Assembly: GCA_016867375.1 (NCBI GenBank)
Contig: VGJQ01000002.1
Coordinates: 368-64,367 of the forward strand
Direction: 5' to 3'
From: Candidatus Kaiserbacteria bacterium
GTDB taxonomy: Bacteria; Patescibacteriota; Minisyncoccia; Phycocordibacterales; UBA2100
Length of the DNA stretch: 64,000 nucleotides
In this document: positions 937 to 63,192 of the stretch, piece by piece
Layout of the letters: each line of letters starts with the position of its first letter
How positions within the stretch are numbered: the first letter of the stretch is position 1
The notes under the pieces: model-generated
Seen by the model: the letters and a program-made list of their open reading frames with translations, nothing else
What the model was told of the DNA's origin: nothing
The model's database searches: none
Made by a program: the position numbers and the translations under genes

Positions 937-942
937 TGCAAA

Positions 943-32045: not shown

Positions 32046-32055
32046 AGAAGTTTTT

Positions 32056-32414: not shown

Positions 32415-33116
32415 ATGTCCTATAGATCTCTTATTCATACGTGGTTTTGCGAACATGCTAAGGACCCGTCCATAAGGGCGGCCTTTTCCTCGATGGTGTT
32501 GCGGGTGCGCGCGGAGTGCAATGGGCACCATTGCACTACCGTGTATGATTGCATCGTTTCGGGGGAATATTACAATGTGCAGACGATGGCCTACTATTAT
32601 TCGCCGTTTCGGAAGGTATATGCAAAACCGTCTGAAGGGTGCCCTTTTTGTACAAGCGCCACGTTTGCAGAGCAGATCATCACTTCAGGGCACGGTATGG
32701 CAGTCGAGAATGAGCATTATCGATGGATCATTAATGCATATCCAAAATTTGAAGGCCATACCATGGTGGTGCCTAAGCGTCATGTGACTACTCTTGGCGA
32801 TGAGAGTGCTGAAGAAATTGTCGCTCGGGAAGAGCTCATTGTGTTGGCGTCAAACACACTTCGGAAGCTGTATCCAGGGTCGGGAATTGAAGTATTTATA
32901 CAAACAGGAGAGGGTTCAGAAAGTAGCGTAGCCCATTTGCACTGGCATGTAGTGCCTTCACTTCCCGAGGATCATCTGCGCGGCTTTGACAAACTCGGTC
33001 ATTTCTTTACGATTGAGCAAGACAAGGAAAAGGTAATCGTCTTTCCGGTGCCGATTCGATTGGCACAAAGCGATCTCCTCAACGCCTTGAGAGATGTTCT
33101 TAGGTCCCGTTCATAA
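32415..33116 (+). CDS. HIT-superfamily (GalT/Ap4A-phosphorylase-like) nucleotidyl hydrolase or transferase
   Basis: Histidine-triad-like HLHWHVVP and a CPFC zinc-knuckle-like motif. The 3' end and stop codon lie inside a module B repeat. Confidence 0.55.
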   Translation: MSYRSLIHTWFCEHAKDPSIRAAFSSMVLRVRAECNGHHCTTVYDCIVSGEYYNVQTMAYYYSPFRKVYAKPSEGCPFCTSATFAEQIITSGHGMAVENEHYRWIINAYPKFEGHTMVVPKRHVTTLGDESAEEIVAREELIVLASNTLRKLYPGSGIEVFIQTGEGSESSVAHLHWHVVPSLPEDHLRGFDKLGHFFTIEQDKEKVIVFPVPIRLAQSDLLNALRDVLRSRS

Positions 33117-33194
33117 ATAATTTCAACACCAAATGAACGGGTCCATAAGTGTAGTCCACAAATAACGAGTACGTTATTTGTGGACGAGCCCTTA
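33099..33194. repeat. Module B copy overlapping the last ~6 codons and stop of the HIT-family gene
   Basis: GGTCCCGTTCAT..GTTATTTGTGGACGAGCCCTTA. Confidence 0.75.
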
Positions 33195-33219
33195 CACAAA
33201 CCACATAAGGAACGTACAG

Positions 33220-36700: not shown

Positions 36701-39700
36701 TATGAATCCGATTCGCGTGAGTCCGATGAGCCGTAGCGCGGGGGTTATATCGCAGTACAACGTAACGTTTCCCGCCGCGACCTCGATTCCGCTTGGCGGT
36801 CAGATTGTGCTCACCTTCCCCTCCGGTTTCGACGTGACAAATGCCGCGATGGTCGCCACCTCCTCGAACGCCTCATTCTGCAACACCGACGTCAACGGCC
36901 CCATGAGCGGTTCGCCGTACATCTTGAGCGTGTCGAACGACGCCAATGCCGGCACCATCACGCTCAATACCGCCGGCGCCGCATCCGGCGCAAACGCGTT
37001 CGTTTGCCTCGACATCGCGGGCATCGTGAATTCGACCGTGCCGTCCACTGCCGGGTACGTCGTTGACCTCAAAACGCGCGACACCGCCGGCAATAACCGC
37101 GCGATTCTCGAAACAAAGAGCGCGGCGCCGTTCTTCCTCGGCGTTGCGGGCACACGCACGCTCACCGTCAATGTCTTCAACGACGGCAACGCAAACAGCA
37201 CGATCAACGCCAATGAAGGCATCGGTAACGTAAAGGTATTTCTGTTCTCGCCAGCGTCCGGAGGACAAATGGCGACGACATCCGCATCGGGTGTTGCGAC
37301 GTTTACCTCGCTCGCCGACGGCGATTACATGCTCGGCCTCGATCCAGGCTCACTCGCGACTGCCTCCTCGACCGTCACCTACAATTCCGCGCCTCAAAAC
37401 TTCACCGTCTCGGCCACCACGCTTGTCAAAAACATCATCGTCTCGGGCGCGGGCAGCACCGTAACGATCTCCGGCACGATCACCGGCCCGTCGGGCACGT
37501 CGATCGACATCTTCGCTTCAAGCCCCAACGGTTTCTCCAAGAAAACGATGACTCTGACCGCCGGCCCCGATGCGTACTCGATCCCCGTTCAGACCAACAG
37601 CACGTACAACATCGGCGTCGGTCCGGCAATGCCCGACACCGCCTTCATCCCGGGCGCTCCGCCACCGCCACCGCCGACGTTCACCTTCATGCCGCCGCCG
37701 TCCTTGATGGTCACGGTCGCTACCACCTCGGTTTCGGGCAAGAACTTCACCCTCTCGAGCGCCTCGAAGACGATCACCGGATCGGTCTTGGATTCCGCGG
37801 GCAACGCCGTATCGAACGCCGGCGTCTTCGCGCGCCCCGTCTCCAATTCGACCGGCGCGGGCGGCGCATCGGGATCGGATCTCGGCTTCGGCACCGGCGG
37901 CATGACCAACACCTCGGGCGCGTTCACGCTCAATGTGGTGCCGGGCACGTACCTCGTCGGCGTGTTCAAGCCGGGTATGCCCAACGTGCCGGATCAGCAA
38001 ATCACCGTGCCGTCGAGCGGCGCCAACACGCCTTCCTCGCTTACCTTCAAGCTCGGCGTCGGCTCGTCGCTCACCATATCGGGTACCGTCAAGGATGACA
38101 GCGGCAATGCGGTACCATATTCCGGCGTTTCCGGCCGCAAAATCACCTCGACATCCGATACGACGCCGATCGGCGGCGGGCAGGGCAACTTCGTCGGCGG
38201 GCCGGCCGACGCCAACGGCGCTTACACGCTCTACGTCACCAACGGTGTCTGGCAAATCGAGGCCTATGCACCGGGCTTCGGGAAGCTCGGCTCCAAGACC
38301 ATTACCGTAGCAGGCTCCTCGCTCTCCGGCCAAGACTTCTCGGCCCAAACGCTTTCGATTGGCACGATTACCGGCTCGACGACCGTGGCATCGGCCGGCG
38401 TGCAGGGTGTGATCGTCCGCGCCGAGGGCGCCAACGGCGCCAACATGGCCGTCTCGGATGCGACCGGCTCGTATAGCCTCAAGGTCCCGGCCGGCACCTA
38501 CACGCTCACGTGCGTCTTCCCGGGACAGGGCGATTCGACCCCGACGACCGGTGTTGCCGTCACGGCCAACAACACTACGAGCGGCCAAGATTGTGCGCTT
38601 GCCGCGCCGATCACCGTCACCGTCAGGCTCACCGACGGCACCAATCCGATCACCAACGCCTTCGTCGACGCGCGCACCTCGACCGGCCGTGGCAATGGCA
38701 CCGGCGACAACGCCACGAGCAGTATCTACGGCGTCTACACGCTCACGCTCGCGCCGGGCACGTACACTATCCGCGCGGGCAGTCCCGCATTCGGCCCCAT
38801 CGGCTCGACCGCCGGGGTCTCCTCGACGCAAACCATCACCTACACAACGCCTAAACTCTACAGCGTAACGGGCACCGTCTCGGCCTCGGGTGTGGGTGCG
38901 ATTAACACATGGGTATCGCTCACGGGAACGCCCACAGGCCAGACCAACATCATTACGACCGGTTCGCAAACGGGCGCGGGCGGCGCCTTCGCGATCTCCG
39001 TGCCGGCGGGGAGTTACCAGATCCGCGCGGACAAACCGGGTTTCATCTCATCGACGCCTTCGACTGTCACCGTCACCGGCGATACCGCGGCGGGGACGCT
39101 CGCGCTCACGACCGCATCCCTCACGATCTCGGGCCAGGTCACGTTGTCGGGTAGCGGCGTCTCGGGCGCATTCGTCGACGCGACGAACGGCTCGGGTGGC
39201 TTTGCAGTAGCGCAAACTGACGCTTCCGGTAACTATTCGCTCGCCGTTTCTTCGGGTACATGGACGGTAACCGCGCGCTCGATAGGGTATTCAGGTGCGA
39301 CAACCGCCTCGGTGGTCGGCGGATCCGCCTCGGGGCAAAACATTGCGCTTTCGGCGATCAGCGGCTTCACGGTCAGGCCCGAGCGCCAGGAAAACGTCAC
39401 GCCGACCATGGGCGGCCTCCTCACTAATTCCGACATCGGCAACGCCTTCAAACTCAACATTCCGGCGAACGCCTTGGGCACCGGTTCAAACGCGGGTACG
39501 GTCAAGACGCAGAACAATACCGCGCTTCCCAATATCGTCAACGGCACCGTGCTCGCTAAAAGCGGCGTTTCGATCAGTGCGGTCGATGCGTCCGGCCAGC
39601 CGGTGAAAAACCTCAACGATAGCGTTACGATTACCGTACCTTACAACGAAAGCGATATTCCGAGCGGCCGATCAGAGAGTGATTTGCAACTCGGCGTGTG

Positions 39701-40751
39701 GAATGATGCGACGGCTGCGTACGACATCCTCCCGACCACGGTCGATGCGGTGAACAATACTTTGACCGCGACCGTGTCCCACTTCTCGGATTTCGCGCCG
39801 ATAGTCCCTGCACAATCGACGACTCCCGGCGTGACGCCCGCAAGCACCCCCGTTGGCAATGGTGCGCCGGTGGGCGGCGGAGGCGGAGGCGGAGGCGGTT
39901 CCACAGGCCCCGCGCCGCGTGCGCAGATCATCTATCCGGATGGTCGTATCGTGTACCTCGATCAGATGAACGGTTCGGAAGCGAAGGTGACCGCTGCTGC
40001 GGCGCCTGCCCAATTCACGAACGCTCCGAAGTCTCTCTCCGACATTCATATCGGCACCACTGTTTCCGGTCGCTTCGTTGCTGCGCTCAAACAAGGTTCA
40101 CGCGGCAAGGACGTTTCGCGCCTGCAAAAGCTCCTTGGCGTCGAAGAAACGGGTTACTTCGGTCTCAAGACCGTAAAAGCCGTGCAAGAATTTCAGCTCA
40201 CTTACGGTGTCGTAAAGAAAAACGGCTCTGGTTACGGGTTGCTCGGCCCCAAGACACGCGCCAAACTCGAAGAAGTATTTTCTTCGAGAGCGATATCGGC
40301 GCAAGCGAGTGCACAAGGACAAACGTCGAGCGGCAACGCTTCGGCTGTTGCAGCCGTCCCGTTCACGCGCACACTCACGGTGGGGATGACAGGCGACGAC
40401 GTGAAGCTTCTCCAGATCATCCTCAACGGCGATCCCGATACGCGGCTTGCCGCATCGGGCGACGGCAGCCCCGGTATGGAGACAAACAAGATTGGCCGCC
40501 TCACCATAAGAGCCATTGAGAAGTTCCAGATCAAACATGGGCTTGTCAAGAAAGGTGCGAGCGGTTTCGGCAATCTCGGCCCCAAGACACGCGCCAAGTT
40601 GAACGAAATCCTCACGGCGCCGGTCGTGGTGACGGAAACAGTCGTCGCGACTTCCTCGCCATCCGTCCCTTCGGTCGCTACGACGACGGCAGCGTCGGCT
40701 GGCGCAACGGTGACGGCAACGACGACCGTCGCCACCAGCACCGCGCAATAG
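33795..40751 (+). CDS. Giant cell-surface protein (2318 aa): signal peptide, many Ig-like and carboxypeptidase-regulatory-like beta-sandwich repeats, Gly9 and Pro6 linkers, two C-terminal peptidoglycan-binding (PGBD-type) repeats
   Basis: Single uninterrupted ORF. N-terminus MRNIIRFFGALGILSVFLFTGLHIASA. Recurrent ..TGSV.D..G..V..A.V......G.Y.L.V..G.Y.. modules. Two copies of LKQGSRGKDVSRLQKLLG..GYFG..T..AV..FQ...GL...G..G.LGPKTRAKL at the C-terminus. Confidence 0.8.
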   Translation: MRNIIRFFGALGILSVFLFTGLHIASAAITSNTAADLTITGQTIKASSTPLAVIGLNVAVNAGEKLASTSIMIAGSNGFAVATDLAPLGTATSSGIALYRDTNGNGRFDAAADTVVPLASAPVFTGATTTLSLTGAGETPISNAGGNNYFLVVQTAGAAVNGHAFTVSIYPGNIQYSSATPAGSPTALTTNTITVDTTAPALNAGMTGPMNGSTGVPISTFIHMGFNENLDQTTLNSSNITLTAGGSPVGIAVRPFPDGFDVVVSNPPSYAASSRFAKASTVSTGFFGVNGTNTIFPQGTYTAPVVGDIVFTQFDTFAPDIGIVTNNTLTSGTFGVNGFALFRPAQITKFAVPNSIGAVTAATGVGIGDLIVVNTSANPTDVKYNWHVVTTADAVNGASLRLDGSGAAPTYQSGSSFSRLLPAATSTVNGSGVLNASTTFAVGDLVFAHLSAGGDNLNRYAWHLVTAVTGAGILGPQGGGGTISLDGGTPTFANNSVVAKLTTAGNGAVDTGTPDATSFSFGDIMFSKVTANAGNTGSYAFHMISNGATGATSTALRLDNSASNLLPSTAYVATASTGVKDAAGNALASPVTLSFTTGSTGGTNTTPPAVMNTQPQQGNQQFAPNGKIALTFSVTMLADGGANAVNNAAVVVLSTSVNGAPGSAVTATRSYDATTNTLTVTPSANLATNTEYVVQVTTAARTTTGVSMPGEYRLYFRTASAVDNTAPTVPGVNPAAGSTGISLSQVFTAGFSKDMDPATVSTSTVKLLTQVGGTAVAGNVSYNPMSRSANFVPSVVLNTSTGYRFQIGAGLTGPADLAGNRLAATSTSFATTTASADAVSPIVSFASADNFGIAVTFSETMKTGSGPNAADNIANYTLESPTGTSISLGGKTVVYDAGTRTARISGLSLQNGNTFKVTIATPVQDLAGNGISTAGTPAGNLSFGTVQSSSMTGGQLGPGTGTMDQSQQGMNPIRVSPMSRSAGVISQYNVTFPAATSIPLGGQIVLTFPSGFDVTNAAMVATSSNASFCNTDVNGPMSGSPYILSVSNDANAGTITLNTAGAASGANAFVCLDIAGIVNSTVPSTAGYVVDLKTRDTAGNNRAILETKSAAPFFLGVAGTRTLTVNVFNDGNANSTINANEGIGNVKVFLFSPASGGQMATTSASGVATFTSLADGDYMLGLDPGSLATASSTVTYNSAPQNFTVSATTLVKNIIVSGAGSTVTISGTITGPSGTSIDIFASSPNGFSKKTMTLTAGPDAYSIPVQTNSTYNIGVGPAMPDTAFIPGAPPPPPPTFTFMPPPSLMVTVATTSVSGKNFTLSSASKTITGSVLDSAGNAVSNAGVFARPVSNSTGAGGASGSDLGFGTGGMTNTSGAFTLNVVPGTYLVGVFKPGMPNVPDQQITVPSSGANTPSSLTFKLGVGSSLTISGTVKDDSGNAVPYSGVSGRKITSTSDTTPIGGGQGNFVGGPADANGAYTLYVTNGVWQIEAYAPGFGKLGSKTITVAGSSLSGQDFSAQTLSIGTITGSTTVASAGVQGVIVRAEGANGANMAVSDATGSYSLKVPAGTYTLTCVFPGQGDSTPTTGVAVTANNTTSGQDCALAAPITVTVRLTDGTNPITNAFVDARTSTGRGNGTGDNATSSIYGVYTLTLAPGTYTIRAGSPAFGPIGSTAGVSSTQTITYTTPKLYSVTGTVSASGVGAINTWVSLTGTPTGQTNIITTGSQTGAGGAFAISVPAGSYQIRADKPGFISSTPSTVTVTGDTAAGTLALTTASLTISGQVTLSGSGVSGAFVDATNGSGGFAVAQTDASGNYSLAVSSGTWTVTARSIGYSGATTASVVGGSASGQNIALSAISGFTVRPERQENVTPTMGGLLTNSDIGNAFKLNIPANALGTGSNAGTVKTQNNTALPNIVNGTVLAKSGVSISAVDASGQPVKNLNDSVTITVPYNESDIPSGRSESDLQLGVWNDATAAYDILPTTVDAVNNTLTATVSHFSDFAPIVPAQSTTPGVTPASTPVGNGAPVGGGGGGGGGSTGPAPRAQIIYPDGRIVYLDQMNGSEAKVTAAAAPAQFTNAPKSLSDIHIGTTVSGRFVAALKQGSRGKDVSRLQKLLGVEETGYFGLKTVKAVQEFQLTYGVVKKNGSGYGLLGPKTRAKLEEVFSSRAISAQASAQGQTSSGNASAVAAVPFTRTLTVGMTGDDVKLLQIILNGDPDTRLAASGDGSPGMETNKIGRLTIRAIEKFQIKHGLVKKGASGFGNLGPKTRAKLNEILTAPVVVTETVVATSSPSVPSVATTTAASAGATVTATTTVATSTAQ

Positions 40752-43617: not shown

Positions 43618-44067
43618 ATGGCAAACCTTAATTCTCTCAAACGGGTAGGCGCGACGAAGAAGATGCGTGTCGGACGCGGTGGCAAGCGCGGCAAGACTTC
43701 TGGTCGCGGTACCAAGGGTCAGAGCGCGCGTGCAGGCAACAAAAAGCGCCCGGAATTGCGCGATATCATCAAGCGTCTCCCAAAGCGCCGCGGATATGGC
43801 AAGAATCGCGCCAAGGGTGTGATCGGCTCATACATAAAGCCGCTCGCGATTCCAGTCGGTCGCCTCGAAAATCTCTTCGACACAGGTGCGGAGGTAAATC
43901 CGCAGACGCTCGCGATGCGCGGCATCGTCAAAGGCAAGGGGAGCCGCGTCCCGCAGATCAAGATCGTCGCAGGCGGCGATTTCTCCAAGAAATTGTCATT
44001 TAGCAAGGTCGGTGTCTCCGCTGCTGCCAAGACGGTGATTGAAAAGGCAGGGGGCAGTGTAGTATAA
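43618..44067 (+). CDS. rplO: 50S ribosomal protein L15
   Basis: MANLNSLKRVGATKKMRVGRGGKRGKTSGRG.. Confidence 0.9.
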   Translation: MANLNSLKRVGATKKMRVGRGGKRGKTSGRGTKGQSARAGNKKRPELRDIIKRLPKRRGYGKNRAKGVIGSYIKPLAIPVGRLENLFDTGAEVNPQTLAMRGIVKGKGSRVPQIKIVAGGDFSKKLSFSKVGVSAAAKTVIEKAGGSVV

Positions 44068-44070
44068 ATA

Positions 44071-44101
44071 TGCAGTTTACAGTTTACAGTTTACAGTTTA
44101 C
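44071..44101. repeat. (CAGTTTA)4.4 tandem heptanucleotide repeat followed by three degenerate CCACTGTC repeats, between rplO and secY
   Basis: cagtttacagtttacagtttacagtttacag read directly. Confidence 0.85.
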
Positions 44102-44162
44102 AGAAACTCGCGGTCGAGCCGGTTTCCACTGTCCTCTGTCCACTGTCTACTGTTAACTTCTT

Positions 44163-45437
44163 ATGTTCGAGACTTTCATTCGCAAACTCAAGCTTGTCTT
44201 TGAAGACAAGACGATCCGGACGCGTATCCTCTTCGTGCTCGGGGCGCTTATTGTATTTCGCTTGCTCGCCGCGATCCCTGTGCCGGGTATCAATGCCGCC
44301 GAACTCCAGGCATTTCTCACCAACAATCAATTCCTCGGACTTCTCAACGTCTTCTCGGGAGGCGGTTTTTCCAATCTTTCGATCGTCATGCTCGGCGTCG
44401 GTCCATATATCACTGCGTCTATCGTGATGCAGCTTTTGACCGTGCTCGTACCCAAGCTCAAGGAGATGTATCAGGAAGAGGGGGATGCTGGCCGAGCTCG
44501 TTTTATGCAGTATTCTCGCTACCTCACGCTTCCGCTCGCGCTCATCCAGGGTTTTGGTTTCATCTTGCTTCTTCAGCAGAATGGCATTTTGCCGGAACTC
44601 ACGATCCTCGGCTTTGTCACCAATATGATGGTCACTGCTGCCGGCTCGATCCTTCTTATGTGGATCGGAGAGCTCATCTCAGAATACGGCGTCGGCAATG
44701 GTGTATCGCTCATCATCTTTGCCGGCATCGTCGCTGCGATCCCGACGAGCGCCGCGCAGTTCTTCTACTCGTTTGACCCTGCACAGCTTCCCGCATACGT
44801 CGGATTCTTCGCGGTCGGTATCGCCATCATGGCGGGTGTCGTCTTCATCACCGAGGCCGAGCGCCCGATCCCTGTCACGTATGCGCGCCGCGTGCGCGGT
44901 ATGAAGGTCATGGGCGGCGTATCCACGTATCTCCCGCTTCGCGTGAATCAGGCGGGAGTCATGCCCATCATCTTTGCGCTCTCTATCCTGCTTTTCCCTC
45001 AGATGATCGCGACCTTCCTCTCCAAGAGCTCGATCCTCTGGCTTGCCGAAGCTGCGCGCGCCGTCGTCGTCGCACTCAACAATCAGTGGCTCTATGGCGC
45101 GCTCTATTTCGTCCTCGTATTTATCTTCACGTATTTCTACACAGCGATCACCTTTGAGCCGCATCAGCTTGCGAAGAATCTGCAGAAGAACGGCGCTTTC
45201 ATCCCCGGCGTGCGCCCAGGCCAGAATACTTCAGAATATCTCGCCAACATCATCACGCGCATCACGCTCGTCGGCGCCCTCTTCCTCGGGTTTCTCGCCG
45301 TCTTGCCGATCATCCTTCAGGGCATTACGGGTATCACTGCGATCACAATCGGCGGCACCGCACTCCTCATCGTCGTCTCCGTAGTCCTCGACCTCGTCAA
45401 AAAGGTCGACGCGCAGACCTCGATTCGGGAGTATTGA
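44163..45437 (+). CDS. secY: Preprotein translocase subunit SecY
   Basis: Ten TM helices, conserved LNVFSGGGFSNLSIVMLGVGPYITASI plug and TM2 region. Confidence 0.9.
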   Translation: MFETFIRKLKLVFEDKTIRTRILFVLGALIVFRLLAAIPVPGINAAELQAFLTNNQFLGLLNVFSGGGFSNLSIVMLGVGPYITASIVMQLLTVLVPKLKEMYQEEGDAGRARFMQYSRYLTLPLALIQGFGFILLLQQNGILPELTILGFVTNMMVTAAGSILLMWIGELISEYGVGNGVSLIIFAGIVAAIPTSAAQFFYSFDPAQLPAYVGFFAVGIAIMAGVVFITEAERPIPVTYARRVRGMKVMGGVSTYLPLRVNQAGVMPIIFALSILLFPQMIATFLSKSSILWLAEAARAVVVALNNQWLYGALYFVLVFIFTYFYTAITFEPHQLAKNLQKNGAFIPGVRPGQNTSEYLANIITRITLVGALFLGFLAVLPIILQGITGITAITIGGTALLIVVSVVLDLVKKVDAQTSIREY

Positions 45438-45506
45438 CAAGAATACATAGTATGTGATATACTTTATTTTAGAGTACAAACTGCAGTACTCGGATTGGAG
45501 GGTGCG

Positions 45507-45905
45507 ATGGCTACTCGTGAGAAGGTACTTGAATTCCTATCAGCTATTCAGGCTGAGCAAAATGCGCTGAAGATCATCCGATCGATCTCGGACCAAAACG
45601 TCGAGTTGTCTGACTTGGACGAGAAAGGTCTCGAGGTGGTTGGGCGGGCTTATACGGCGGCTATTGAGAAAATGTTGCCGAATCTTCTGGATATCACCGC
45701 TGGCGTATACGCGAAGCATTATACCGACGACGAGATCAGCCAACTCACGACCTTCTATACCTCGCCTCTTGCGCAAAGACAAACCTCTCTAGCGAAAGAG
45801 ATCAACGAGGCCGTCGGCGAATATCTTGAGGGGGCAAAGGAAGATATTGTGAAGATTATTAAAGGAGCCATCGACGACGTCGATGGCATAAAGAAGTCCG
45901 ACTGA
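45507..45905 (+). CDS. Hypothetical cytoplasmic protein (132 aa)
   Basis: GGAGGG SD 8 nt before ATG 45507 (track start 45495 is TTG). Confidence 0.5.
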   Translation: MATREKVLEFLSAIQAEQNALKIIRSISDQNVELSDLDEKGLEVVGRAYTAAIEKMLPNLLDITAGVYAKHYTDDEISQLTTFYTSPLAQRQTSLAKEINEAVGEYLEGAKEDIVKIIKGAIDDVDGIKKSD

Positions 45906-45934
45906 TGTTGTCCCGCGCCACCGTGTATACGGCC

Positions 45935-45969
45935 GGCGCGGGATTCTTTTTATTTTTTTTGGTATAGTG
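45935..45969 (+). promoter_or_regulatory. First copy of a 33-bp direct repeat GCGGGATTCTTTTTATTTTTTTGGTATAGT containing an extended -10 (TGgTATAGT); second copy at 47630-47664
   Basis: Direct repeats bracket the hicBA/phd-relE island; -10-like hexamer TATAGT at 45964-45969. Confidence 0.5.
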
Positions 45970-46041
45970 TCGCAGGTCGGGCTTATGACACTAGCGAGGA
46001 ATTCATTTTGTATATGGGTAGATTCGGGGTATACTACAAAT

Positions 46042-46326
46042 ATGAAAAAGCGCGCCAAGAAGATCAAGACGGAGGTACAGACCGATTACGGATTGTTCGC
46101 GGTTGTGCTTGAGAGCGAACCCGATATGGGTGGGTACATGATAACGGTGCCGAAAGTACCACCTGTAATTACGTGTGGAAGAAACATAACACATGCCAAA
46201 GAAATGGCTCGCGAGGCGATCGAATTAACGCTTGAGACGCAAACACTCCATGCTGCAGAGCAGGCAGGTCGGATCAAGTTCACAAAGAAAGCGTCATTGC
46301 CGGCTCATGGTGTTGCTTTTGCATGA
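46042..46326 (+). CDS. hicB: HicB-family antitoxin
   Basis: GGYMITVPKVPPVITCGRNITHAKEMAREAIELTLE matches the HicB N-terminal RNase-H-like domain. TATACT sits 6 nt upstream of the ATG, so the mRNA is possibly leaderless. Track ORF starts at 45967 (GTG). Confidence 0.65.
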   Translation: MKKRAKKIKTEVQTDYGLFAVVLESEPDMGGYMITVPKVPPVITCGRNITHAKEMAREAIELTLETQTLHAAEQAGRIKFTKKASLPAHGVAFA

Positions 46327-46544
46327 GCACATTGCCGATACTTTCGGCGCGAGAAACGATGCGCCGACTCATACGGCTCGGATTTCGCGTTGAAGGATAT
46401 CGGGGAAGTCATGCGATATTGGTGCACGATCGAACAGGACGGGAAACCACCGTACCGATGCATCCAGGCGACCTTGGCCGGAAGTTGCTCTCCGGCATCA
46501 TCAAACAATCCGGCGTGAATCTTCAGGATTTTCTGAGTGCGTAA
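46323..46544 (+). CDS. hicA: HicA-family toxin (mRNA interferase)
   Basis: RLIRLGFRVEGYRGSHAILVHDRTGRETTVPMHPGDLGRKLLSGIIKQSGV has the HicA dsRBD-like fold signature (GSH..vp.H). 4-nt overlap with hicB. Confidence 0.7.
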   Translation: MSTLPILSARETMRRLIRLGFRVEGYRGSHAILVHDRTGRETTVPMHPGDLGRKLLSGIIKQSGVNLQDFLSA

Positions 46545-46670
46545 GATAGAGAGTGGTCGATATAATCACGATTGGCGGCACGGCGCTTCCCATCGCATCT
46601 GCGTAGTCCTCGACCTCGTCAAAAAGATCGACGCGCAGACGAGTATAAGGGTTCATTTTGAATACAGTAA

Positions 46671-46913
46671 ATGATGAGGTATAATGTAAATGTGAATATT
46701 ATAACCATTCCACAAAGAATCATATCGAACGACGATCTCGTTATCATCCCTCGCAAGGAGTACGAGGCGCTCAAGGCGCGGCCGGTTGTCGCTGAGTTTG
46801 CGCCATCATCGGCGCAGGTGCGCACACTCTCCCGTGCACGCAAGCATTTCAAAGAGGGCAAAACCATTTCCTATGATGAAATCGTCAAGCGAGTGGCGGC
46901 TCGCGGTCGATAA
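46671..46913 (+). CDS. Phd/YefM-type antitoxin
   Basis: IITIPQRIISNDDLVIIPRKEYEALKA matches the Phd/YefM N-terminal pattern (..pvvItrrgkpvaVlls.eeYeaL). A relE-like remnant lies downstream. Confidence 0.55.
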   Translation: MMRYNVNVNIITIPQRIISNDDLVIIPRKEYEALKARPVVAEFAPSSAQVRTLSRARKHFKEGKTISYDEIVKRVAARGR

Positions 46914-46943
46914 CAGTGTCGACAAAATGCTCGGTCGCATCCC

Positions 46944-47035
46944 GCATAAGGGCTCGTCCACACATAATGTACCCATTATTTGTGGACTACACTTATGGGC
47001 CCGTTCATTTGGTGTTGAACTTCGGGACCTAAGGA
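46944..47035. repeat. Module A repeat inserted between the phd-like antitoxin and the truncated relE
   Basis: AAGGGCTCGTCCACACATAATGTACCCATTATTTGTGGACTACACTTATGGGCCCGTTCATTTGGTGTTGAAC. Confidence 0.8.
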
Positions 47036-47048
47036 TGCGGAAGCCCTG

Positions 47049-47231
47049 TTGGATGTCGTTGCGTCCCTCGTCATCAATCCATTCTTGGGTGATATTCAGA
47101 AGATGAAAGGCAAAGACAACGTTTGGCGCAGACGTATCGGCGCATATCGTATATTCTTCGAGATTTACCCATTGGTACGAATTGTGCATGTGTATCACAT
47201 CGAACGCCGCACATCGTCGACATATCGATAG
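47049..47231 (+). pseudogene. relE: RelE/ParE-family toxin lacking its N-terminal ~25 codons (5' truncation coincident with the module A insertion)
   Basis: ..NPFLGDIQKMKGKDNVWRRRIGAYRIFFEIYPLVRIVHVYHIERRTSSTY aligns with the RelE C-terminal two-thirds. There is no in-frame ATG; an upstream in-frame stop lies at 47016, inside the repeat. Confidence 0.55.
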
Positions 47232-47305
47232 TATTCGGGAGTATTGACGTGCAGGCAATACCCAATTACTATCTGCCTCAGACGTAATCAGGAAAGGGTA
47301 AGGAT

Positions 47306-47587
47306 ATGGCTATGAAGGCTCGCTACGCTCTGTTTCTCATACTACTGCTCCCGCTTGCGAGCAGCGCTGCTTTCTACATAAAGCCGGACGATCGGAAGTG
47401 GCCCGAAAAGCCATCGATCTACCTCGTGGAGGCGAAGATTATCATCATGGAGTATGTCGAAGAAATGTCGCAACTGTATAAAACACATATGGGGCAGGAA
47501 TTGTCAGCTCAACAGAAGGCTGAGATAAGGGACGAGACGCTTACCCACATGATCGCACAAGGGAGCTACCGGTTTATAGCACCATAA
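47306..47587 (+). CDS. Small secreted hypothetical protein (93 aa)
   Basis: Signal peptide MAMKARYALFLILLLPLASSAA; followed by a terminator. Confidence 0.5.
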   Translation: MAMKARYALFLILLLPLASSAAFYIKPDDRKWPEKPSIYLVEAKIIIMEYVEEMSQLYKTHMGQELSAQQKAEIRDETLTHMIAQGSYRFIAP

Positions 47588-47593
47588 TCTGAA

Positions 47594-47621
47594 AATCCAG
47601 AGCGTCGCTCTGGATTTTTTC
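47594..47621 (+). terminator. Rho-independent terminator ATCCAGAG-CGTCG-CTCTGGAT + TTTTTT
   Basis: Read directly. Confidence 0.7.
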
Positions 47622-47629
47622 TTGTGGCG

Positions 47630-47664
47630 TAAAGCGGGATTCTTTTTTATTTTTTTGGTATAGT
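47630..47664 (+). promoter_or_regulatory. Second copy of the 33-bp direct repeat. -10 TATAGT at 47659-47664 lies only 7 nt before the gmk ATG, so gmk is probably leaderless
   Basis: Identity with 45935-45969 read directly. Confidence 0.5.
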
Positions 47665-47671
47665 AGGTGCC

Positions 47672-48259
47672 ATGCAGCTCAAACAAGTCGTGGTGATTGC
47701 AGGACCTTCCGGTAGCGGGAAAAATGCGGTGATCGACGAGATCATCAAGATATGTCCGCGCTGCGAACGGCTCGTCACGGCGACCACGCGCGCTCCACGG
47801 GTAGGGGAGATCAACGGTGTCGATTATCATTTCCTCAAACGCGATGAGTTTGACCGGGCGCTTGCAAGCGGAGATATCCTCGAACATCGCTATGTCAGCT
47901 CGCTCGACACGCATTATGGTGTATACAAGCCCGATCTTGAGAGTCGCCTGACGCTCGGTCAGGTCGTGTTCGCGCATCTCGATATTATCGGTGCACGTTA
48001 CCTCAAGGAGCATTACAATGCGACGACGATTTTCATCATGCCGGATTCACTTGAAATATTGGAGAGTCGTGTGCGCGGACGCAACCACGATATGCCGGAG
48101 GAAGAAGTGCAGAAGCGCATGGCGATTGCACGCACCGAAGTCACCGAACATGCTCCAAAATACGACTACCGTGTATTGAATATAAACGGCAAGCTTGATC
48201 AGACGATAGCGCAGGTCGTGGAGATATTAAAAAAGGAAGGATACGACCTGTCGCCATGA
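47672..48259 (+). CDS. gmk: Guanylate kinase
   Basis: P-loop GPSGSGKNA, TTRAPR guanylate-kinase motif, ..GVDYHFL. Confidence 0.8.
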   Translation: MQLKQVVVIAGPSGSGKNAVIDEIIKICPRCERLVTATTRAPRVGEINGVDYHFLKRDEFDRALASGDILEHRYVSSLDTHYGVYKPDLESRLTLGQVVFAHLDIIGARYLKEHYNATTIFIMPDSLEILESRVRGRNHDMPEEEVQKRMAIARTEVTEHAPKYDYRVLNINGKLDQTIAQVVEILKKEGYDLSP

Positions 48260-48840
48260 CGCCCGTCTCCCTACTTTTTTTCGGTTCGCAGGGCTCTGGT
48301 AAGGGGACACAGGTCACCAAGGTCATCGAGTATCTCGCATCCAAATCCGATCGCAAGGTGATCCGTATCGATATGGGTGCGGAATTGCGTGCCATGGTCG
48401 GTGAAGGTGGTCATACCGGACCCTTGGTCAATGCCGTGATTAGCGCGGGCAAGCGCATGCCGGATTTCATGCCAATCTATCTCTCCACTAAAAAGTTCAT
48501 CGAACAGTTCACAGGGACAGAGCACATCATTGCCGACGGTCTCGCGCGTGGTGACGATCAGACGCGTGGCTTTGACGACATGATGCAATTTTACGGACGC
48601 GGCGATTATCAGGTCATCCATCTCGTGCTTTCCGAAGAGGTCGCTGTCCAGAGACTCCTTGCGCGCGGCCGTCCGGACGATACCGAAGAGGCAATCCGTG
48701 CTCGCCTCATCTGGAACAAGCAGATCGTCGAGCCGCAGATTGAGCTTTTGCGCACCCGTGGCAGGCTCGTACATCAGATCAACGGTGAGCAAGATCCCGA
48801 CCTAGTGCATCGCGACATCCTCTTCGCCCTCAAGTGGTAA
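48256..48840 (+). CDS. adk: Adenylate kinase (short, no zinc lid)
   Basis: P-loop GSQGSGKGTQ and GRPDDTEE (RxDD) motifs; 4-nt overlap with gmk. Confidence 0.75.
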   Translation: MTPVSLLFFGSQGSGKGTQVTKVIEYLASKSDRKVIRIDMGAELRAMVGEGGHTGPLVNAVISAGKRMPDFMPIYLSTKKFIEQFTGTEHIIADGLARGDDQTRGFDDMMQFYGRGDYQVIHLVLSEEVAVQRLLARGRPDDTEEAIRARLIWNKQIVEPQIELLRTRGRLVHQINGEQDPDLVHRDILFALKW

Positions 48841-48848
48841 GGGTATTA

Positions 48849-48888
48849 AAAGGCGACGCCTTTTAGGCAAAAAGGCGTCGCCTTTTTC
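48849..48888 (+). terminator. Rho-independent terminator AAAAGGCGACGCC-TTTTAGGCAAAA-AGGCGTCGCCTTTTT
   Basis: Read directly. Confidence 0.65.
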
Positions 48889-48940
48889 TCGCCTTTTGCT
48901 CGACTATGTGTCTGGTGCCCGGGATGGTACAGTGGTCCCT

Positions 48941-49711
48941 ATGATTGCAAAGACCGCAGAAGACCTACAGACGCTACGCGAGGGTGGCCGGCGGCTTGCG
49001 CGGCACGTGAGCACACTGATCGAGATGGTGCAGCCTGGAGTCGATGTGAGAGATATCGAAAGCCTGGCGCGCGATATGGTGGCCCAAGACGGCGATGAGC
49101 TCGCTTTTTTTGGCTACCCGTCGGGCAAGCGTGGTGAGAGATATCCCACCGCAATCTGTCTCTCCATCAACGATGCGATCGTCCATGGCATTCAGAGCCA
49201 GACCGATTATGTGATTCAGGAAGGCGATGTGGTGTCGATTGATTTCGGTATCAAGCACAAAGGCCTCTATACCGATCATGCCAAGACCGTGATCGCGGGG
49301 TCTCCGCTCAATGCCGCGGACGAACGGCTCGTACGCGGCACCTACGAGGCGCTTGCGGTCGGTATCGCAGCGGCGCGCGAAGGCGGCAGGACGGGAGATA
49401 TCGGTGCGGCAGTGGAGGCGATTGCCCAGAAATACGGCTTTGGCTTCCCGCGCGATCTTGCTGGACATGGTGTGGGCAGGGCACTCCACGAAGAACCGCA
49501 TGTGCCCAATTATGGCACCAAGGGCACCGGTGCCTTACTCGAACACCATCTCGTGATCGCGATCGAACCGATGATGACCTTGGGTACCGGCAATCTCTAT
49601 GTCGACAAAGACAATTTTACCTATCGCACCAAAGACGGTTCCCGTGCCGCACACGCCGAGCATACAGTGATCATCACCCCCGAAGGCGCCGAGATTTTAA
49701 CGAAGGAATGA
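48941..49711 (+). CDS. map: Methionine aminopeptidase type I
   Basis: MIAKTAEDLQTLREGGRRLA aligns with the MAP N-terminus. Metal ligands D..D..H..E..E are in conserved blocks (DVVSIDFG, GHGVGRALHEEP). Track ORF starts at 48896. Confidence 0.85.
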   Translation: MIAKTAEDLQTLREGGRRLARHVSTLIEMVQPGVDVRDIESLARDMVAQDGDELAFFGYPSGKRGERYPTAICLSINDAIVHGIQSQTDYVIQEGDVVSIDFGIKHKGLYTDHAKTVIAGSPLNAADERLVRGTYEALAVGIAAAREGGRTGDIGAAVEAIAQKYGFGFPRDLAGHGVGRALHEEPHVPNYGTKGTGALLEHHLVIAIEPMMTLGTGNLYVDKDNFTYRTKDGSRAAHAEHTVIITPEGAEILTKE

Positions 49712-49972
49712 TTAATCGTAGATATCGTGATCGCCGATTTCGTAGAAATGAACGATTTCTTTTGTTGTACCAAAATCGAAAATGATCCGATACTCATTAT
49801 TGACCGAAAAGGCGAGAAAGCCATCGAGAGATCCGGATAATTTGTGCGTCTTCAAGCGTTGATCAAAAGGATCCGCCTGGAATATTTGCACCCTTTTCTC
49901 CGTAAGTAATTTGATGGATAGAGGCAATTTCTTGTATTGCCGCATGAACTTTGAGAGATACTGTATTTCCAT
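49712..49972 (-). CDS. RelE/YafQ-family type II toxin
   Basis: ..THKLSGSLDGFLAFSVNNEYRIIFDF..IVHFYEIGDHDIY resembles the YafQ/RelE core (dHpLqG...ahv.pdwlliY...l.l.rtGtH). Convergent and abutting the map stop. Confidence 0.6.
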   Translation of the reverse strand: MEIQYLSKFMRQYKKLPLSIKLLTEKRVQIFQADPFDQRLKTHKLSGSLDGFLAFSVNNEYRIIFDFGTTKEIVHFYEIGDHDIYD

Positions 49973-49988
49973 GACCCCTTGATACTTG

Positions 49989-50204
49989 CTATCGCCAGTC
50001 TTGTAATGATTTTAAGACCTTGCCCTTGCCTTGGTCAAATTGGCGGCGTTGTGCGTATAAGCTGCGCGCCAGTTGTGCTCGTTTATACTCTCGAATGAGC
50101 GTACGGATAAACTCGCTCGTCGAGGCAAATCCTTCGCGCCTTACCTCGCGCTTGAGCTCATCGGCCATTTCCTTTGGTAACGATATGTTTACGATTGTTC
50201 GCAT
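49989..50204 (-). CDS. Ribbon-helix-helix (CopG/RelB-like) antitoxin
   Basis: MRTIVNISLPKEMADELKREVRREGFASTSEFIRTLIREY; 16 nt upstream of the toxin on the same strand. Confidence 0.6.
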   Translation of the reverse strand: MRTIVNISLPKEMADELKREVRREGFASTSEFIRTLIREYKRAQLARSLYAQRRQFDQGKGKVLKSLQDWR

Positions 50205-50250
50205 GTAATACATTGTATTACACCCTGTTTGAAATGCAAGTGAAGTTAAT

Positions 50251-50412
50251 TTAGGTCCCATTCATAAATTAAGGCTCACTTTTGCTATGCAAGTGTGCAC
50301 TTATGGGCCGATGTATATTCTTATACATCGGCCCGAAGTTCAACACAAAATGAACGGGCCCATACGTGTAGTCCACAAATAATGTACCCGTTATGTGTGG
50401 ACGAGCCCTTAA
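50251..50412. repeat. Composite repeat: module C deletion variant (50262-50310), perfect palindrome GGGCCGATGTATA-TTCT-TATACATCGGCCC (50302-50331), module B (50335-50412)
   Basis: Read directly. Confidence 0.8.
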
Positions 50413-50439
50413 TCATTTACTGAATGCTATACTTTCAGT

Positions 50440-53205
50440 ATGGAAACGCGCGGGATGGAGCGGACATCTTTTACCTCGTCGGAAAAATTTAAATCTCCCC
50501 AAGAGGAGCTTGCCTATCTGCGCGAGCGTGTGCGCGAAAGAGAGCGAGAGCTTGATATCTCGAGCAATCGCCACGAGAGCGATCGTATCGCGCGTCGCGA
50601 GGTCAAAGCGTATGGCGAAGTCCCGGCATCACGCGTCTTGCATGAGCATTTCGTCATACCCGAACACGAAGCAGTCCGCGAGATGATCAAGCTCGAGCCT
50701 GAGACACACGACAAACAGATCGATGGTCTGCTCGACATGGTCGCGCGCAGCGGCATCCGCAATGCGCTTTCGGTCGCATCGCGCATGAAGAATCCCCACC
50801 TCGAAGATGATCTCCATCGCGCGATCGTGCAGTATGTGGCAGAAGGTTTGCCCGACAAAGGTATGGGCGCTCCCGAAAAGGTCCGCAAAGGCCTCACTAT
50901 GGTGCTTTTCGAAGTGCATCCCCAGGCGCACGGCGAAGGGGATCAGAGCAAACAGCCGCACAAGCTCGAGCAACTGCTCTCGTCATCCGAACAGCTCTAT
51001 GCCGGCATCATCTCGCTCGTCGGTGAGGGAGAATCATTCTCGCTCGAGATTGCCGTAGGGCAGGGTACGGAAGAGGCGTCGCTGTATCTGGCTGTACCGC
51101 GCTCAAAGCGGGACCTCGCGGAGCGTCTGATCGCGTCGGTCTTTCCCAATGCGCGTATCACCGAAAATCGCGGAGATTACAACATCTTCAATTATGACGG
51201 CGAACACGCGGCTGCCTATGGAAAGCTCTCCCAGCACCCGGCACTGCCCTTGAAGACGTATGAATCGTTCGAGCACGATCCCCTCAATGTGCTCCTCGTA
51301 GCCTTTGCCCGGATCAAGAAACATGGCGAAGGGGCGGCGTTGCAGATCGTACTCTCCAGCGAAGGCGATCGCTACAACAAACACTACCGCAAAATGCTCC
51401 GCGAGCTCGAGAAGGGAAAGTCTTTGGGTGAGGCGCTGCGTGTGCCCGAGACTATTTTTGGTGAAGTGGTGCATGATCTGGCGAGCTCGATGTTTACGAA
51501 CGATGCGGACAAGGAGAAGGAGAAAGAGCGCGAAATGCGCCGTGTGACCGATTCGGTATCGGCGGAATCTTTGGGTCGCAAGATCAAGACCCGTATCGTG
51601 CCCGCGACGATCCGTATCGTCACCTCCGCACCGACCGCCGAGCGCGCGCATGAGATGCTTACGAATCTCGAGAGTGCATTCGGACAGTTTGACGATGCCA
51701 AGGGCAATACAATGACCTTCAAAAGCGTATCCTCGTGGTATATGCGCGATTTTCTGCGCGCATTTACCTTCCGCGAATTTGACGACTCTGTCATGATGCC
51801 GCTCTCGCTTTCCGAGATCACCTCTGTCTTTCATTTCACCGCCGAGCAGGTGACGACCTCGCGCGAGCTCAAAAAATCCTATGCCAAACAGACTCCCGCA
51901 CCGGTCGAAATGCCTGAAGACGGTATCGTCATCGGTGTCAATCGCTATGGTGGGCAGGAGACGCCAGTGCGTTTTGGTGTCGCCGACCGCTTGCGCCATG
52001 CGTACGTGATCGGTCAGACAGGTACCGGTAAGACGGGTCTCCTCAAAAATATGATCATTCAGGATATGCGCAATGGTGAAGGTGTGGCCTACATCGATCC
52101 GCATGGCAACGATATCGAAGAGCTCCTCGCTGCCGTGCCGCCCGAACGGTACGACGACGTGATCTACTTTGATCCGGCATACACAGCGCGTCCGATGGGA
52201 CTCAACATGCTCGAATACGATATCAGTCGTCCCGAAATGAAGACGTTTGTCATCGATGAAGTGTACGGCATTTTCCGTAAGCTCTATTCGGATGTGCCCG
52301 AGGCGTTTGGTCCGATGTTTGAGCAGTACTACCGCAATGCTGTACAGCTCGTGCTCGAAGATCCCGATACGGGCAACACCTTCGTCGAAGTCGCGCGTAT
52401 ATTTGCCGACTCATATTTCCGCGACATGAAGCTCGCACACTGCAAGAATCCGATCGTCGTGCAGTTTTGGCGCAAGATCGCCGAGCAGGCACAAGGAGAT
52501 CCGTCGCTTGAAAACATCGCTCCGTACATTGTCGGCAAGTTCGATGTGTTCCTGACCAATGACATCATGCGACCGATTGTTGCGCAGGAGCATTCTGCCT
52601 TCGACTTCCGTGAGATTATGGACGATCGCAAGATCTTCCTCGCCAATCTCTCCAAAGGCCGCTTGGGCGATCGTAACACCAGCCTGCTAGGCCTTGTGCT
52701 TGTGTCCAAGTTCCTCCAAGCGGCGTTTTCACGCGTGGATACGCGCGGGGATTTGCCGCCGTTTTACTTCTATATTGACGAATTCCAAAACTTCGCGACA
52801 CCCTCGATCTCGACGATCCTTTCTGAAGCGCGCAAATACAAGCTCTCACTGACGATCGCTCACCAATTCATCGCACAGCTCGACGAAGGCATCCGCGACG
52901 CCGTGATCGGCAACGTCGGTACGAAGGCAGCTTTTCGTGTCGGTACCACCGATGCCGAATTCCTCGCCAAACAATTCGAGCCGGCCTTTGCTGCCTCAGA
53001 CCTCGAAAATCTTCCCAATCGTAATGCCGTGCTCGCTCTCTTGGTCAATGGCAGACCCGCGCGCCCCTTCACAGTCGAGACGATCGAGCTACCAAAAGTC
53101 GACTTCACCAAGGTCGATGCACTTAAGAAGCTTTCATACGATCGATTTGGTAGTGATAGGGGAGAAGTGGAAGCCGACATCCAGCGCAAATTTGACCAAC
53201 TCTAG
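50440..53205 (+). CDS. TraD/TrwB/VirD4-family P-loop ATPase paralog (921 aa) with a ~500-aa N-terminal domain of unknown function
   Basis: Core HAYVIGQTGTGKTGLLKNMIIQDMRNGEGVAYIDPHGN.., FYFYIDEFQNF and LTIAHQFIAQLDEG are collinear with 8977-11166. The N-terminal half has no recognisable motif. Confidence 0.75.
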   Translation: METRGMERTSFTSSEKFKSPQEELAYLRERVRERERELDISSNRHESDRIARREVKAYGEVPASRVLHEHFVIPEHEAVREMIKLEPETHDKQIDGLLDMVARSGIRNALSVASRMKNPHLEDDLHRAIVQYVAEGLPDKGMGAPEKVRKGLTMVLFEVHPQAHGEGDQSKQPHKLEQLLSSSEQLYAGIISLVGEGESFSLEIAVGQGTEEASLYLAVPRSKRDLAERLIASVFPNARITENRGDYNIFNYDGEHAAAYGKLSQHPALPLKTYESFEHDPLNVLLVAFARIKKHGEGAALQIVLSSEGDRYNKHYRKMLRELEKGKSLGEALRVPETIFGEVVHDLASSMFTNDADKEKEKEREMRRVTDSVSAESLGRKIKTRIVPATIRIVTSAPTAERAHEMLTNLESAFGQFDDAKGNTMTFKSVSSWYMRDFLRAFTFREFDDSVMMPLSLSEITSVFHFTAEQVTTSRELKKSYAKQTPAPVEMPEDGIVIGVNRYGGQETPVRFGVADRLRHAYVIGQTGTGKTGLLKNMIIQDMRNGEGVAYIDPHGNDIEELLAAVPPERYDDVIYFDPAYTARPMGLNMLEYDISRPEMKTFVIDEVYGIFRKLYSDVPEAFGPMFEQYYRNAVQLVLEDPDTGNTFVEVARIFADSYFRDMKLAHCKNPIVVQFWRKIAEQAQGDPSLENIAPYIVGKFDVFLTNDIMRPIVAQEHSAFDFREIMDDRKIFLANLSKGRLGDRNTSLLGLVLVSKFLQAAFSRVDTRGDLPPFYFYIDEFQNFATPSISTILSEARKYKLSLTIAHQFIAQLDEGIRDAVIGNVGTKAAFRVGTTDAEFLAKQFEPAFAASDLENLPNRNAVLALLVNGRPARPFTVETIELPKVDFTKVDALKKLSYDRFGSDRGEVEADIQRKFDQL

Positions 53206-63154: not shown

Positions 63155-63192
63155 GGGCTCGTCCGCACATAACGTACCCTATGTATGATAGA

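Follow-up and report, generated by a model that had tools for sequence, protein, structure and literature searches.

A short palindromic repeat probably interrupts a RelE-like toxin gene and leaves an orphan antitoxin in a Kaiserbacteria genome

The locus considered here lies in the window, that is, the whole 64 kb stretch of Candidatus Kaiserbacteria DNA that was analysed, and is best explained as an archaeal-type RelB/RelE-like type II operon in which the toxin gene has been interrupted by a short, hairpin-rich, non-autonomous repeat, leaving a toxin pseudogene and an orphan antitoxin. A probability of about 0.86 can be placed on this reading. The toxin gene is a member of the RelE/ParE superfamily (PF05016, RelE branch) in the form of an interrupted pseudogene, and the locus contains no continuous gene from which the complete RelE domain could be translated. 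The features on which the argument rests are collected in Table 1.

Table 1 Coordinates of the features of the interrupted operon, as positions in the window
Feature	Position	Strand	Evidence
Promoter-like site TTGAAT-16-TATAAT	46658..46685	+	10/12 matches; ends 6 nt before antitoxin start
Antitoxin gene, intact, 73 aa	46692..46913	+	likely start GTG 46692; identical to NCBI FJY93_00715
Toxin 5' part, codons 1-25 (MKSSSEWRLAVDNSVDKMLGRIPHK), frame 1	46876..46950	+	homolog-only HMM nodes 1-25, E=3e-6
ORF read from native toxin start, 76-aa chimera	46876..47106	+	frame-1 translation, ends TGA 47104-47106
Left TAA direct repeat	46947..46949	+	repeats 47030-47032
Inserted repeat 'module A', 80 bp, GGGCTCGTCCA...CGGGACC	46950..47029	+	nhmmer E=1e-24
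Right TAA direct repeat	47030..47032	+	sequence comparison of flanks
Toxin 3' part, frame 0, codons 25/26-90 (KDAEALLDVV...ERRTSSTYR) and stop	47031..47231	+	HMM nodes 25-89, E=2e-32

The earlier note on this DNA had described, downstream of the antitoxin, an ORF holding the C-terminal two-thirds of a RelE toxin without an ATG, and this much is borne out. The ORF, which ends at 47231, lies in another frame than the antitoxin and encodes ...RIGAYRIFFEIYPLVRIVHVYHIERR..., matches Pfam ParE_toxin PF05016 over profile positions 35-87 (25.2 bits for the 60-aa fragment alone), and has no in-frame ATG at its head; NCBI lists a 61-aa piece of it as FJY93_00720, a hypothetical protein of Candidatus Kaiserbacteria bacterium. 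Why, then, did the N-terminus of the toxin appear to be lost? It was overlooked because it overlaps the 3' end of the antitoxin gene in another frame. On three-frame translation, frame 1 reads MMKSSSEWRLAVDNSVDKMLGRIPHK from ATG 46873/46876, past the end of the antitoxin gene, to the AAG at 46948-50, and frame 0 restarts with KDAEALLDVVASL... at AAG 47031. When a homolog-only toxin profile, built without any sequence from the window, is placed on the three raw frames, frame 1 gives a match to nodes 1-25 and frame 0 one to nodes 25-89, with both matches abutting the element. The 5' part spans beta1, alpha1 and the first turn of alpha2, and the 3' part spans the rest of alpha2 and beta2-beta5 with all its family-invariant residues; across both halves the invariant W7, G44, D45, K48, W56, R57-59, R64, R83-84 and Y89 are all retained.

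The insertion point thus lies between codons 25 and 26 of a 90-codon toxin gene, after K25, with the lysine codon present twice, once on each side of the insert. With its 83 nt the insertion moves the reading frame by +2. Deletion of 83 bp rejoins the toxin into one open frame of 90-91 codons, and wherever the cut is set inside the direct TAAGG repeat (46947-51 and 47030-34), the rejoined protein is the same. The rejoined 91-aa ORF matches PF05016 over profile positions 3-86 of 89 with E=5.4e-7 and 30.6 bits, the cutoff for this family being 23 bits. The junction expected upon removal of the insert is CATAAGGATGCGG, and the longer synthetic empty site for the locus reads ...CGCATCCCGCATAAGGATGCGGAAGCC.... 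A removal of 86 bp, in which TAA is part of both ends and there is no duplication, also restores the frame, and was rejected on the loss of one residue from the conserved P-x-K-D spacing.

The inserted sequence is a copy of a repeat here called module A. The earlier note placed a copy of 92 bp at the junction of antitoxin and toxin. A copy does lie between the antitoxin and the toxin fragment, measuring 80 bp with a 3-bp TAA rather than 92 bp, and it sits not at the junction but within the toxin coding sequence, 37 nt 3' of the antitoxin stop; the in-frame stop seen inside the repeat is also there (TGA 47016-47018, frame 0). The terminal inverted repeat of the inserted copy is imperfect, with GGGCTCGTCCA and GGTCCCGTTCA matching at 8/11 positions. 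Its first hairpin is found at 46956-46987 and its second is shortened, the copy being without 9 bp (ATTTATGAA) of the right hairpin found in canonical copies. Fold z-scores of the element are -3.2 as RNA and -4.3 as DNA. An Rfam search of positions 44000-50600 at E<=1 gave no match, on which ground the insert was rejected as a known structured RNA or intron. The flanking duplication can be read as extending up to TAAGG (46947-46951 and 47030-47034), and the TAA pair is either a target-site duplication or a target/cleavage motif, since a fixed motif would look alike. Because the toxin halves are otherwise undamaged and the inserted copy is 97.3% identical to a sibling copy (c13603), the insertion appears to be recent.

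Across the window nhmmer finds nine full copies and one partial copy of module A (E 1e-20 to 1e-27), six on the + strand and four on the -, with no strand bias. The unit, GGGCTCGTCCA...TGAACGGGACC, is 80-100 bp long, non-coding and multi-copy, and has a near-perfect 14-bp hairpin near its left end and a second hairpin at its right end; the left hairpin is conserved among copies, three of its pairs with compensatory changes, and several copies contain other nested modules. TAA flanks the left end in 10/10 copies and the right end in 6/8. As direct repeats these flanks match perfectly, and as inverted repeats the middle base is mismatched. Together with the single TAAGG of a homologous empty site (contig L007, described below), the flanks indicate either a TA/TAA target duplication or insertion beside a fixed TAA motif. 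With regard to gene context, 7/9 full copies are intergenic, one lies within the toxin gene, and one (c33122r) clips a HIT-family gene four codons before its stop, so that the ending ...RQTT and stop becomes ...RSRS and stop, with the last three codons changed. The family seems to prefer TAA sites and to persist mostly between genes; among coding targets, a toxin gene would be one of the rare cases in which loss can be tolerated, or may even be an advantage, as long as the antitoxin is kept. Searches for full module A elsewhere gave 0 matches for two patterns against species-representative genomes and 0 for the strict pattern against metagenomes. A relaxed pattern retrieved a single metagenomic contig (L006); the match there covers just part of a hairpin, BLAST finds no similarity between the contig and the window, and L006 was treated as unrelated.

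What might have moved the element? The only transposase seen in the window is a RAYT-like Y1 gene, an ORF at 235-936 that lies 70 bp from a module A copy (c59) and matches Pfam Y1_Tnp with 28.5 bits (cutoff 23). Among NCBIfam models it scores best with that of the REP-associated tyrosine transposase, though its 38.9 bits stay below the equivalog cutoff of 80. The gene is bracketed by long inverted palindromes at 161-214 and 937-1004, an arrangement that has been described for RAYTs and REPINs (PMC3116915, PMC3337134). These flanking palindromes are of the ATGTCAAAAGTCAGACTTTCTACA type, another sequence type than module A, whose copy is merely adjacent, and the Y1 gene is therefore not one flanked by the same repeat, as a cognate HUH transposase of module A would be. 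Mobilisation would have been either of the HUH/RAYT type or that of a DDE-type MITE with TA(A) duplication. When the earlier note spoke of MITE-driven toxin-antitoxin decay, the insertion of a small repeat stands, and 'MITE' is a reasonable working label for module A, which may have been transposed by DDE or by HUH/RAYT chemistry.

The comparison with intact relatives bears directly on the interruption. A database search with the rejoined toxin returned about 90 intact homologs, nearly all of 89 aa, at 98% coverage and up to 59% identity, and the only near-identical match was the 61-aa FJY93_00720, that is, the toxin fragment itself as annotated. The alignments, which the earlier note had proposed as a way of estimating the missing N-terminus, are gap-free at the junction, with the P-x-K-D motif conserved exactly there, and nothing is missing from the N-terminus once the 83 bp are removed. 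A relative without the repeat, for which the note had also proposed to look, is provided by a Logan contig, L007, which carries the closest relative of the antitoxin (P0096, 66% identity) in an intact operon. The L007 toxin is absent from the gene calls, and a toxin-profile scan finds it as an uninterrupted gene of 89 codons (E=1.6e-38) whose product is 67% identical to the rejoined toxin, without gaps. The operon-wide DNA alignment of the two loci has one clean 83-nt gap exactly at the element, and at the empty site, ...ACTTAAGGATGCGG..., L007 carries TAAGG only once. As L007 is a homolog (67% protein identity) and not a sister strain, it would represent the original empty site of this locus at one remove. 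The search brought up no strict ortholog that lacks the insert. The exact-protein look-up for P0001 and P0095 in other assemblies found none on record. The source of the sequence is a metagenome-assembled genome, and the population may be mixed for the insertion.

The fold of the rejoined toxin is that of the family. Its AlphaFold model has a mean pLDDT of 89.5 and the compact beta-alpha-alpha-beta4 fold of RelE, with beta1 at residues 8-11, alpha1 at 13-21, alpha2 at 24-36 and four further strands, and the insertion falls at the start of helix alpha2. In a Foldseek search of this model the top matches are all RelE or YoeB (TM 0.70-0.81). It superposes on aRelE of P. horikoshii (1wmi_A) with a TM of 0.81 and an rmsd of 2.0 A, and also on the RelE of T. 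thermophilus (2khe) and the RelE1 of M. tuberculosis (9g12). The toxin family profile searched against the PDB retrieves the same aRelE chain with E=8e-9, as well as M. jannaschii RelE3 (3bpq_B) and the RelE structures 2khe and 9g12.

The antitoxin gene is intact, as had been claimed. The mechanical ORF runs from ATG 46671 to the stop at 46913, though the true start is likely the GTG at 46692, giving a protein of 73 aa; the homologs of the antitoxin begin MNIITIP. The spacing between the promoter-like site and this start suggests a leaderless or near-leaderless operon mRNA, and in a homologous locus (L002) a TATAAT-like box also stands directly before the ATG. The description of the antitoxin as Phd-like did not hold. 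A Pfam search of the protein gave no match, Phd/YefM (Pfam PF02604) matched 0/51 members of its family, and the antitoxin profile retrieved no Phd or YefM chain from the PDB, where its best match, to RelB3 (3bpq_A), is non-significant (E=0.1) and covers 24 residues only. The AlphaFold model is extended and helical with a pTM of 0.37, and Foldseek found no fold match for it; across Pfam, NCBIfam, PDB profile search, AlphaFold and Foldseek there was nothing significant by which to assign a family. The protein belongs to a group of uncharacterised proteins of about 72 aa that are paired with the RelE subfamily of this toxin, of which 137 representatives were found. It is possible that the antitoxin is an archaeal-type RelB, and the pair as a whole looks closest to archaeal-type RelB/RelE. 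The layout of a type II toxin-antitoxin system, with a small upstream co-oriented antitoxin, is kept in the homolog loci L001, L002 and L007, and the overlap of the antitoxin 3' end with the toxin start, 38 nt here against 35 nt in L001 and L002, is normal for the family.

Taken together, these features allow a simple sequence of events to be proposed. A repeat with a preference for TAA would have inserted after codon 25 of the toxin gene, adding 80 bp and a duplicated TAA. Translation from the native start would now yield the 76-aa chimera, consisting of 25 native residues followed by 51 residues of element and out-of-frame sequence, without alpha2 and without the whole beta-sheet that bears the conserved Arg, Lys and Tyr residues. 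The 60-65 codons downstream are left with no proper start and with beta1 and alpha1 missing. No active RelE is then likely to be made from this allele, and the toxin would be a pseudogene. The antitoxin, with its promoter-like site, would stay as an orphan, which may still act as an autorepressor or as a cross-neutraliser. The claim that the repeat had inactivated the toxin and spared the antitoxin is thus upheld in its outcome, by the split profile matches, the 83-nt gap against L007 and the gap-free homologs of 89 aa, and is amended in the mechanism by which this was said to have happened.

Four other explanations deserve consideration. The first, which is very unlikely, is that the insertion arose as an artefact during assembly or binning, or belongs to a minority of the population. 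The source is indeed a MAG, repeats are classic sites of misassembly, and the exact antitoxin is on record in no other assembly. Against this, the 83-bp insert is shorter than typical reads and is flanked by unique sequence left and right. The target duplication is perfect and stands exactly where real transposition would place it, and misassembly does not as a rule create such duplications.

The second explanation is that the interruption is conditional, being relieved by slippage excision at TAAGG, by translational bypass from AAG to AAG, or by removal of the insert at the RNA level. Several features give it some appeal: identical TAAGG pentamers bracket the insert, with a take-off AAG at 46948-50 and a landing AAG at 47031-33; a strong hairpin begins 6 nt past the first AAG; the CCGCAT/ATGCGG flanks can pair and so bring the two junctions together; and both toxin halves are undamaged. 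The matching codons are, however, an automatic by-product of the duplication, and since 7/9 full copies are intergenic the element is not one adapted to coding sequence. In the case of bypass, the codon directly after the take-off codon is GGC and not a stop, and a further 51 codons can be read in frame 1, so there is no reason for the ribosome to stall there. As for RNA-level removal, no self-splicing RNA was matched in Rfam, and known bacterial introns are longer than 80 nt. Conditional interruption as a whole is therefore most unlikely, and the particular proposal that ribosomes cross the hairpin by hopping between AAG 46948 and AAG 47031, or that the element is excised precisely between the TAAGG repeats, has scarcely any chance of being right; nothing positively supports excision or recoding. 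Read-through by a -1 frameshift, which would add an insertion of 27 aa, was rejected as well, there being no slippery X_XXY_YYZ heptamer in 46900-47110.

A third explanation, that the C-terminal form of about 60 aa is native or neo-functional and expressed from TTG 47049 or CTG 47046, is scarcely plausible. The fragment is annotated as a gene (P0001), and on its own it passes the Pfam ParE_toxin cutoff (25.2 bits against 23). Yet nearly all of the roughly 90 other homologs are of about 85-90 aa and cover >=87% of the rejoined protein. The fold is a compact single domain, of which the fragment does not have beta1, alpha1 or the beginning of alpha2. Neither ATG nor GTG is present as a start, and directly upstream of the fragment there is no promoter-like site; the nearest one on the forward strand, at 46848-46877, lies at the start of the native toxin, some 170 nt further upstream. 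Neither of the findings that the earlier note had named as telling against toxin inactivation was encountered, in that the short form is not native among the homologs and no slippery frameshift site is present. The last explanation, that insertion took place at the antitoxin-toxin junction and cost the toxin its N-terminal third, by removal or replacement, fits a frame-0 fragment that has no ATG, has a stop upstream within the element and is all that NCBI annotates (61 aa), and it can be dismissed as next to impossible, refuted by codons 1-25 matching the family profile in frame 1 at 46876-46950 (E=3e-6), by the split profile matches and the L007 alignment, by the full-length gap-free RelE that removal of 83 bp gives, and by an element that begins 37 nt past the antitoxin stop, inside the toxin coding sequence.

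Interruption of the toxin gene by a small repeat thus remains the preferred reading, and the locus is apparently a case of ordinary, recent pseudogenisation. In terms of annotation, it should be described as a single, interrupted RelE pseudogene accompanied by an orphan antitoxin rather than as a 61-aa 'hypothetical protein' or a truncated gene, and it illustrates how gene callers and human readers alike miss an N-terminus when it overlaps the gene before it in a different frame. It also offers a clean, datable case of toxin-antitoxin decay in which the toxin was hit first and the antitoxin kept. The small genome of this CPR bacterium (Kaiserbacteria) nonetheless appears to host an active, nested, TAA-preferring palindromic repeat family together with a RAYT-like transposase. 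If excision were to prove true, the repeat would be a reversible off-switch of a RelE toxin in a CPR bacterium. It is well known that small mobile repeats insert into genes and that toxin-antitoxin modules decay with the toxin going first. New here are the repeat family and a clear-cut case from a CPR genome, which extend known processes to a poorly studied lineage and leave current understanding unchanged. A search of the literature on MITE-disrupted toxin genes and on MITEs in CPR genomes returned nothing relevant.

How does the locus compare with systems that are already known? Short palindromic insertions within genes include the Rickettsia palindromic elements, which lie in protein-coding genes, in frame, and are translated, and the bypass elements, such as that of T4 gene 60 and the mobile 'byps' of yeast mitochondria, where identical codons flank the insert. 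The 83-nt insert differs from the Rickettsia elements in that it shifts the frame. With the T4 gene 60 and 'byp' elements it shares matching AAG take-off and landing codons, a likeness trivially expected from the duplication, and it differs from them in having no stop codon past the take-off and no enrichment in coding regions. The REP/REPIN-RAYT systems and the palindromes derived from IS200/IS605 (PMC3116915, PMC3337134) resemble module A in their subterminal hairpins and in a fixed short motif 5' of the left end (TAA in 10/10 copies of module A), and the window resembles them in holding a single Y1/HUH gene bracketed by inverted palindromes and adjoining a module A copy. The differences are that the bracketing palindromes are unlike module A, that the NCBIfam score of 38.9 is below 80, and that there is no strand bias. 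REPs are, moreover, defined as extragenic (PMC3116915, PMC3337134), whereas the module A copy in the toxin gene is intragenic.

For the operon, the closest parallels are the archaeal-type RelBE systems, represented by P. horikoshii aRelB-aRelE (1wmi) and M. jannaschii RelB3-RelE3 (3bpq). The likeness lies in the antitoxin-first order and the small size of both proteins, in a toxin profile that matches 1wmi_A (E=8e-9) and 3bpq_B with a model that reaches TM 0.81 on 1wmi_A, and in the sole PDB resemblance of the antitoxin, which is to RelB3 of the same 3bpq complex, at a non-significant E=0.1. The toxin differs from the solved RelE structures in sequence, with 20-25% identity, and the operon differs in its CPR host, its gene overlap of 35-38 nt, and a toxin that is interrupted and presumably dead here.

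For the element, the parallel is with bacterial MITEs that carry TA or TAA duplications, among them Correia of Neisseria, RUP of Streptococcus pneumoniae, and MITEs derived from IS630 or IS5. Module A differs from these in its weak terminal inverted repeats (8/11), in having no DDE transposase partner identified, and in the finding of no full copy in the other genomes and metagenomes searched. It is like them in being 80-100 bp long, non-coding and multi-copy, with hairpins, imperfect terminal inverted repeats and TA(A) direct repeats, and in being mostly intergenic, with occasional disruption or remodelling of a gene and nesting within other copies. TAA(GG) on both sides of the insert, against the single TAAGG in L007, a homolog and not a sister strain, fits the target-site duplication of a MITE, and would fit a fixed target motif as well.

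Beyond the split RelE toxin gene, a HIT-family gene (32415-33116) is the second coding sequence to have been struck by module A. The point of insertion lies four codons ahead of the stop, such that the element itself supplies the stop codon of the gene along with the three residues ahead of it, and the product ends in ...RSRS* as found versus ...RQTT* when the element is excised in silico, with a length of 233 amino acids either way. A partial copy near the right-hand end of the window begins directly after a TAA that is also the stop codon of the ORF at 62738-63154, and thus the TAA flank of module A can double as the stop codon of a gene.

Features in the window discussed in the text
Feature	Position	Strand	Remark
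Module A copy	71-160		adjoins the palindrome-bracketed Y1 block 161-1004
Long palindromes, ATGTCAAAAGTCAGACTTTCTACA type	161-214 and 937-1004		either side of the Y1 gene
HUH/Y1 transposase gene, 233 aa	235-936		Pfam Y1_Tnp above threshold
Modules nested in module A	13690-13765, 19090-19160, 32050-32120, 50255-50335		
Module A copy	33101-33195	-	overlaps the 3' end of HIT-family gene 32415-33116
Single 2318-aa ORF	33795-40751		spans part of the window where GC content is highest
HicB-like/HicA pair	45967-46544		directly upstream of the RelBE-like pair
YafQ/HigB-like toxin with RHH antitoxin	49712-50261	-	downstream of the RelBE-like pair
Partial module A copy reduced to the left hairpin	63152-63187		starts directly after TAA

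Within the ribosomal-protein cluster, the toxin-antitoxin modules look like cassettes that were inserted into the secY-gmk-adk-map interval. Here the 3' end of secY, some 90 nt, is present twice (45340-45420 and 46560-46642), the second time just upstream of the antitoxin gene, and a 31-nt promoter-like repeat (45938-45968 and 47634-47664) encloses a block that holds a 93-aa ORF in addition to HicBA and the RelBE-like pair. On L007, the contig of the closest relative, direct repeats of about 44 nt lie on either side of the intact toxin-antitoxin cassette, at about 5-50 and about 555-600. They resemble the 3' half of a tRNA (T-arm GTTCGAGTC) and suggest an att-like duplication by an integrating cassette. 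A complete tRNA was not found by ARAGORN on the truncated L007 locus. Gene calling passed over the toxin gene of L007 and in its place reported a 52-aa ORF on the other strand.

Decay within this toxin family may extend to another member, P0094, a 138-aa RelE homolog on three Hainich groundwater contigs (L003-L005), whose match to the family is limited to the middle part, with the N- and C-terminal parts both diverging. Directly upstream, in the expected antitoxin position, no gene is called, the nearest being one of 416 aa. Within the window, an 81-aa ORF (15106-15351) without a Pfam match might, as a guess from its sequence, be RelE-like.

The genome holds a layered set of small repeats tied to TA sites. 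Further modules sit inside copies of module A, between ...GTGTTGAACTTA and TGAACGGGACC, one of them reading TAAGTGCACACTTGCATACATGACCAAAAGTCATGTATGCAGAAGTGAGCCTTA, and other palindromic families, D3 and D10, are present as well. The base composition is also uneven, with a GC content of 63% in the 36-40 kb bin versus about 53% elsewhere in the window.

At the left end of the window, the Y1 transposase gene together with its bracketing palindromes, which differ in type from module A, represents a RAYT/REPIN-like layout in a CPR genome, the best NCBIfam match of the product being the REP-associated tyrosine transposase model, at a score below the cutoff of that model.
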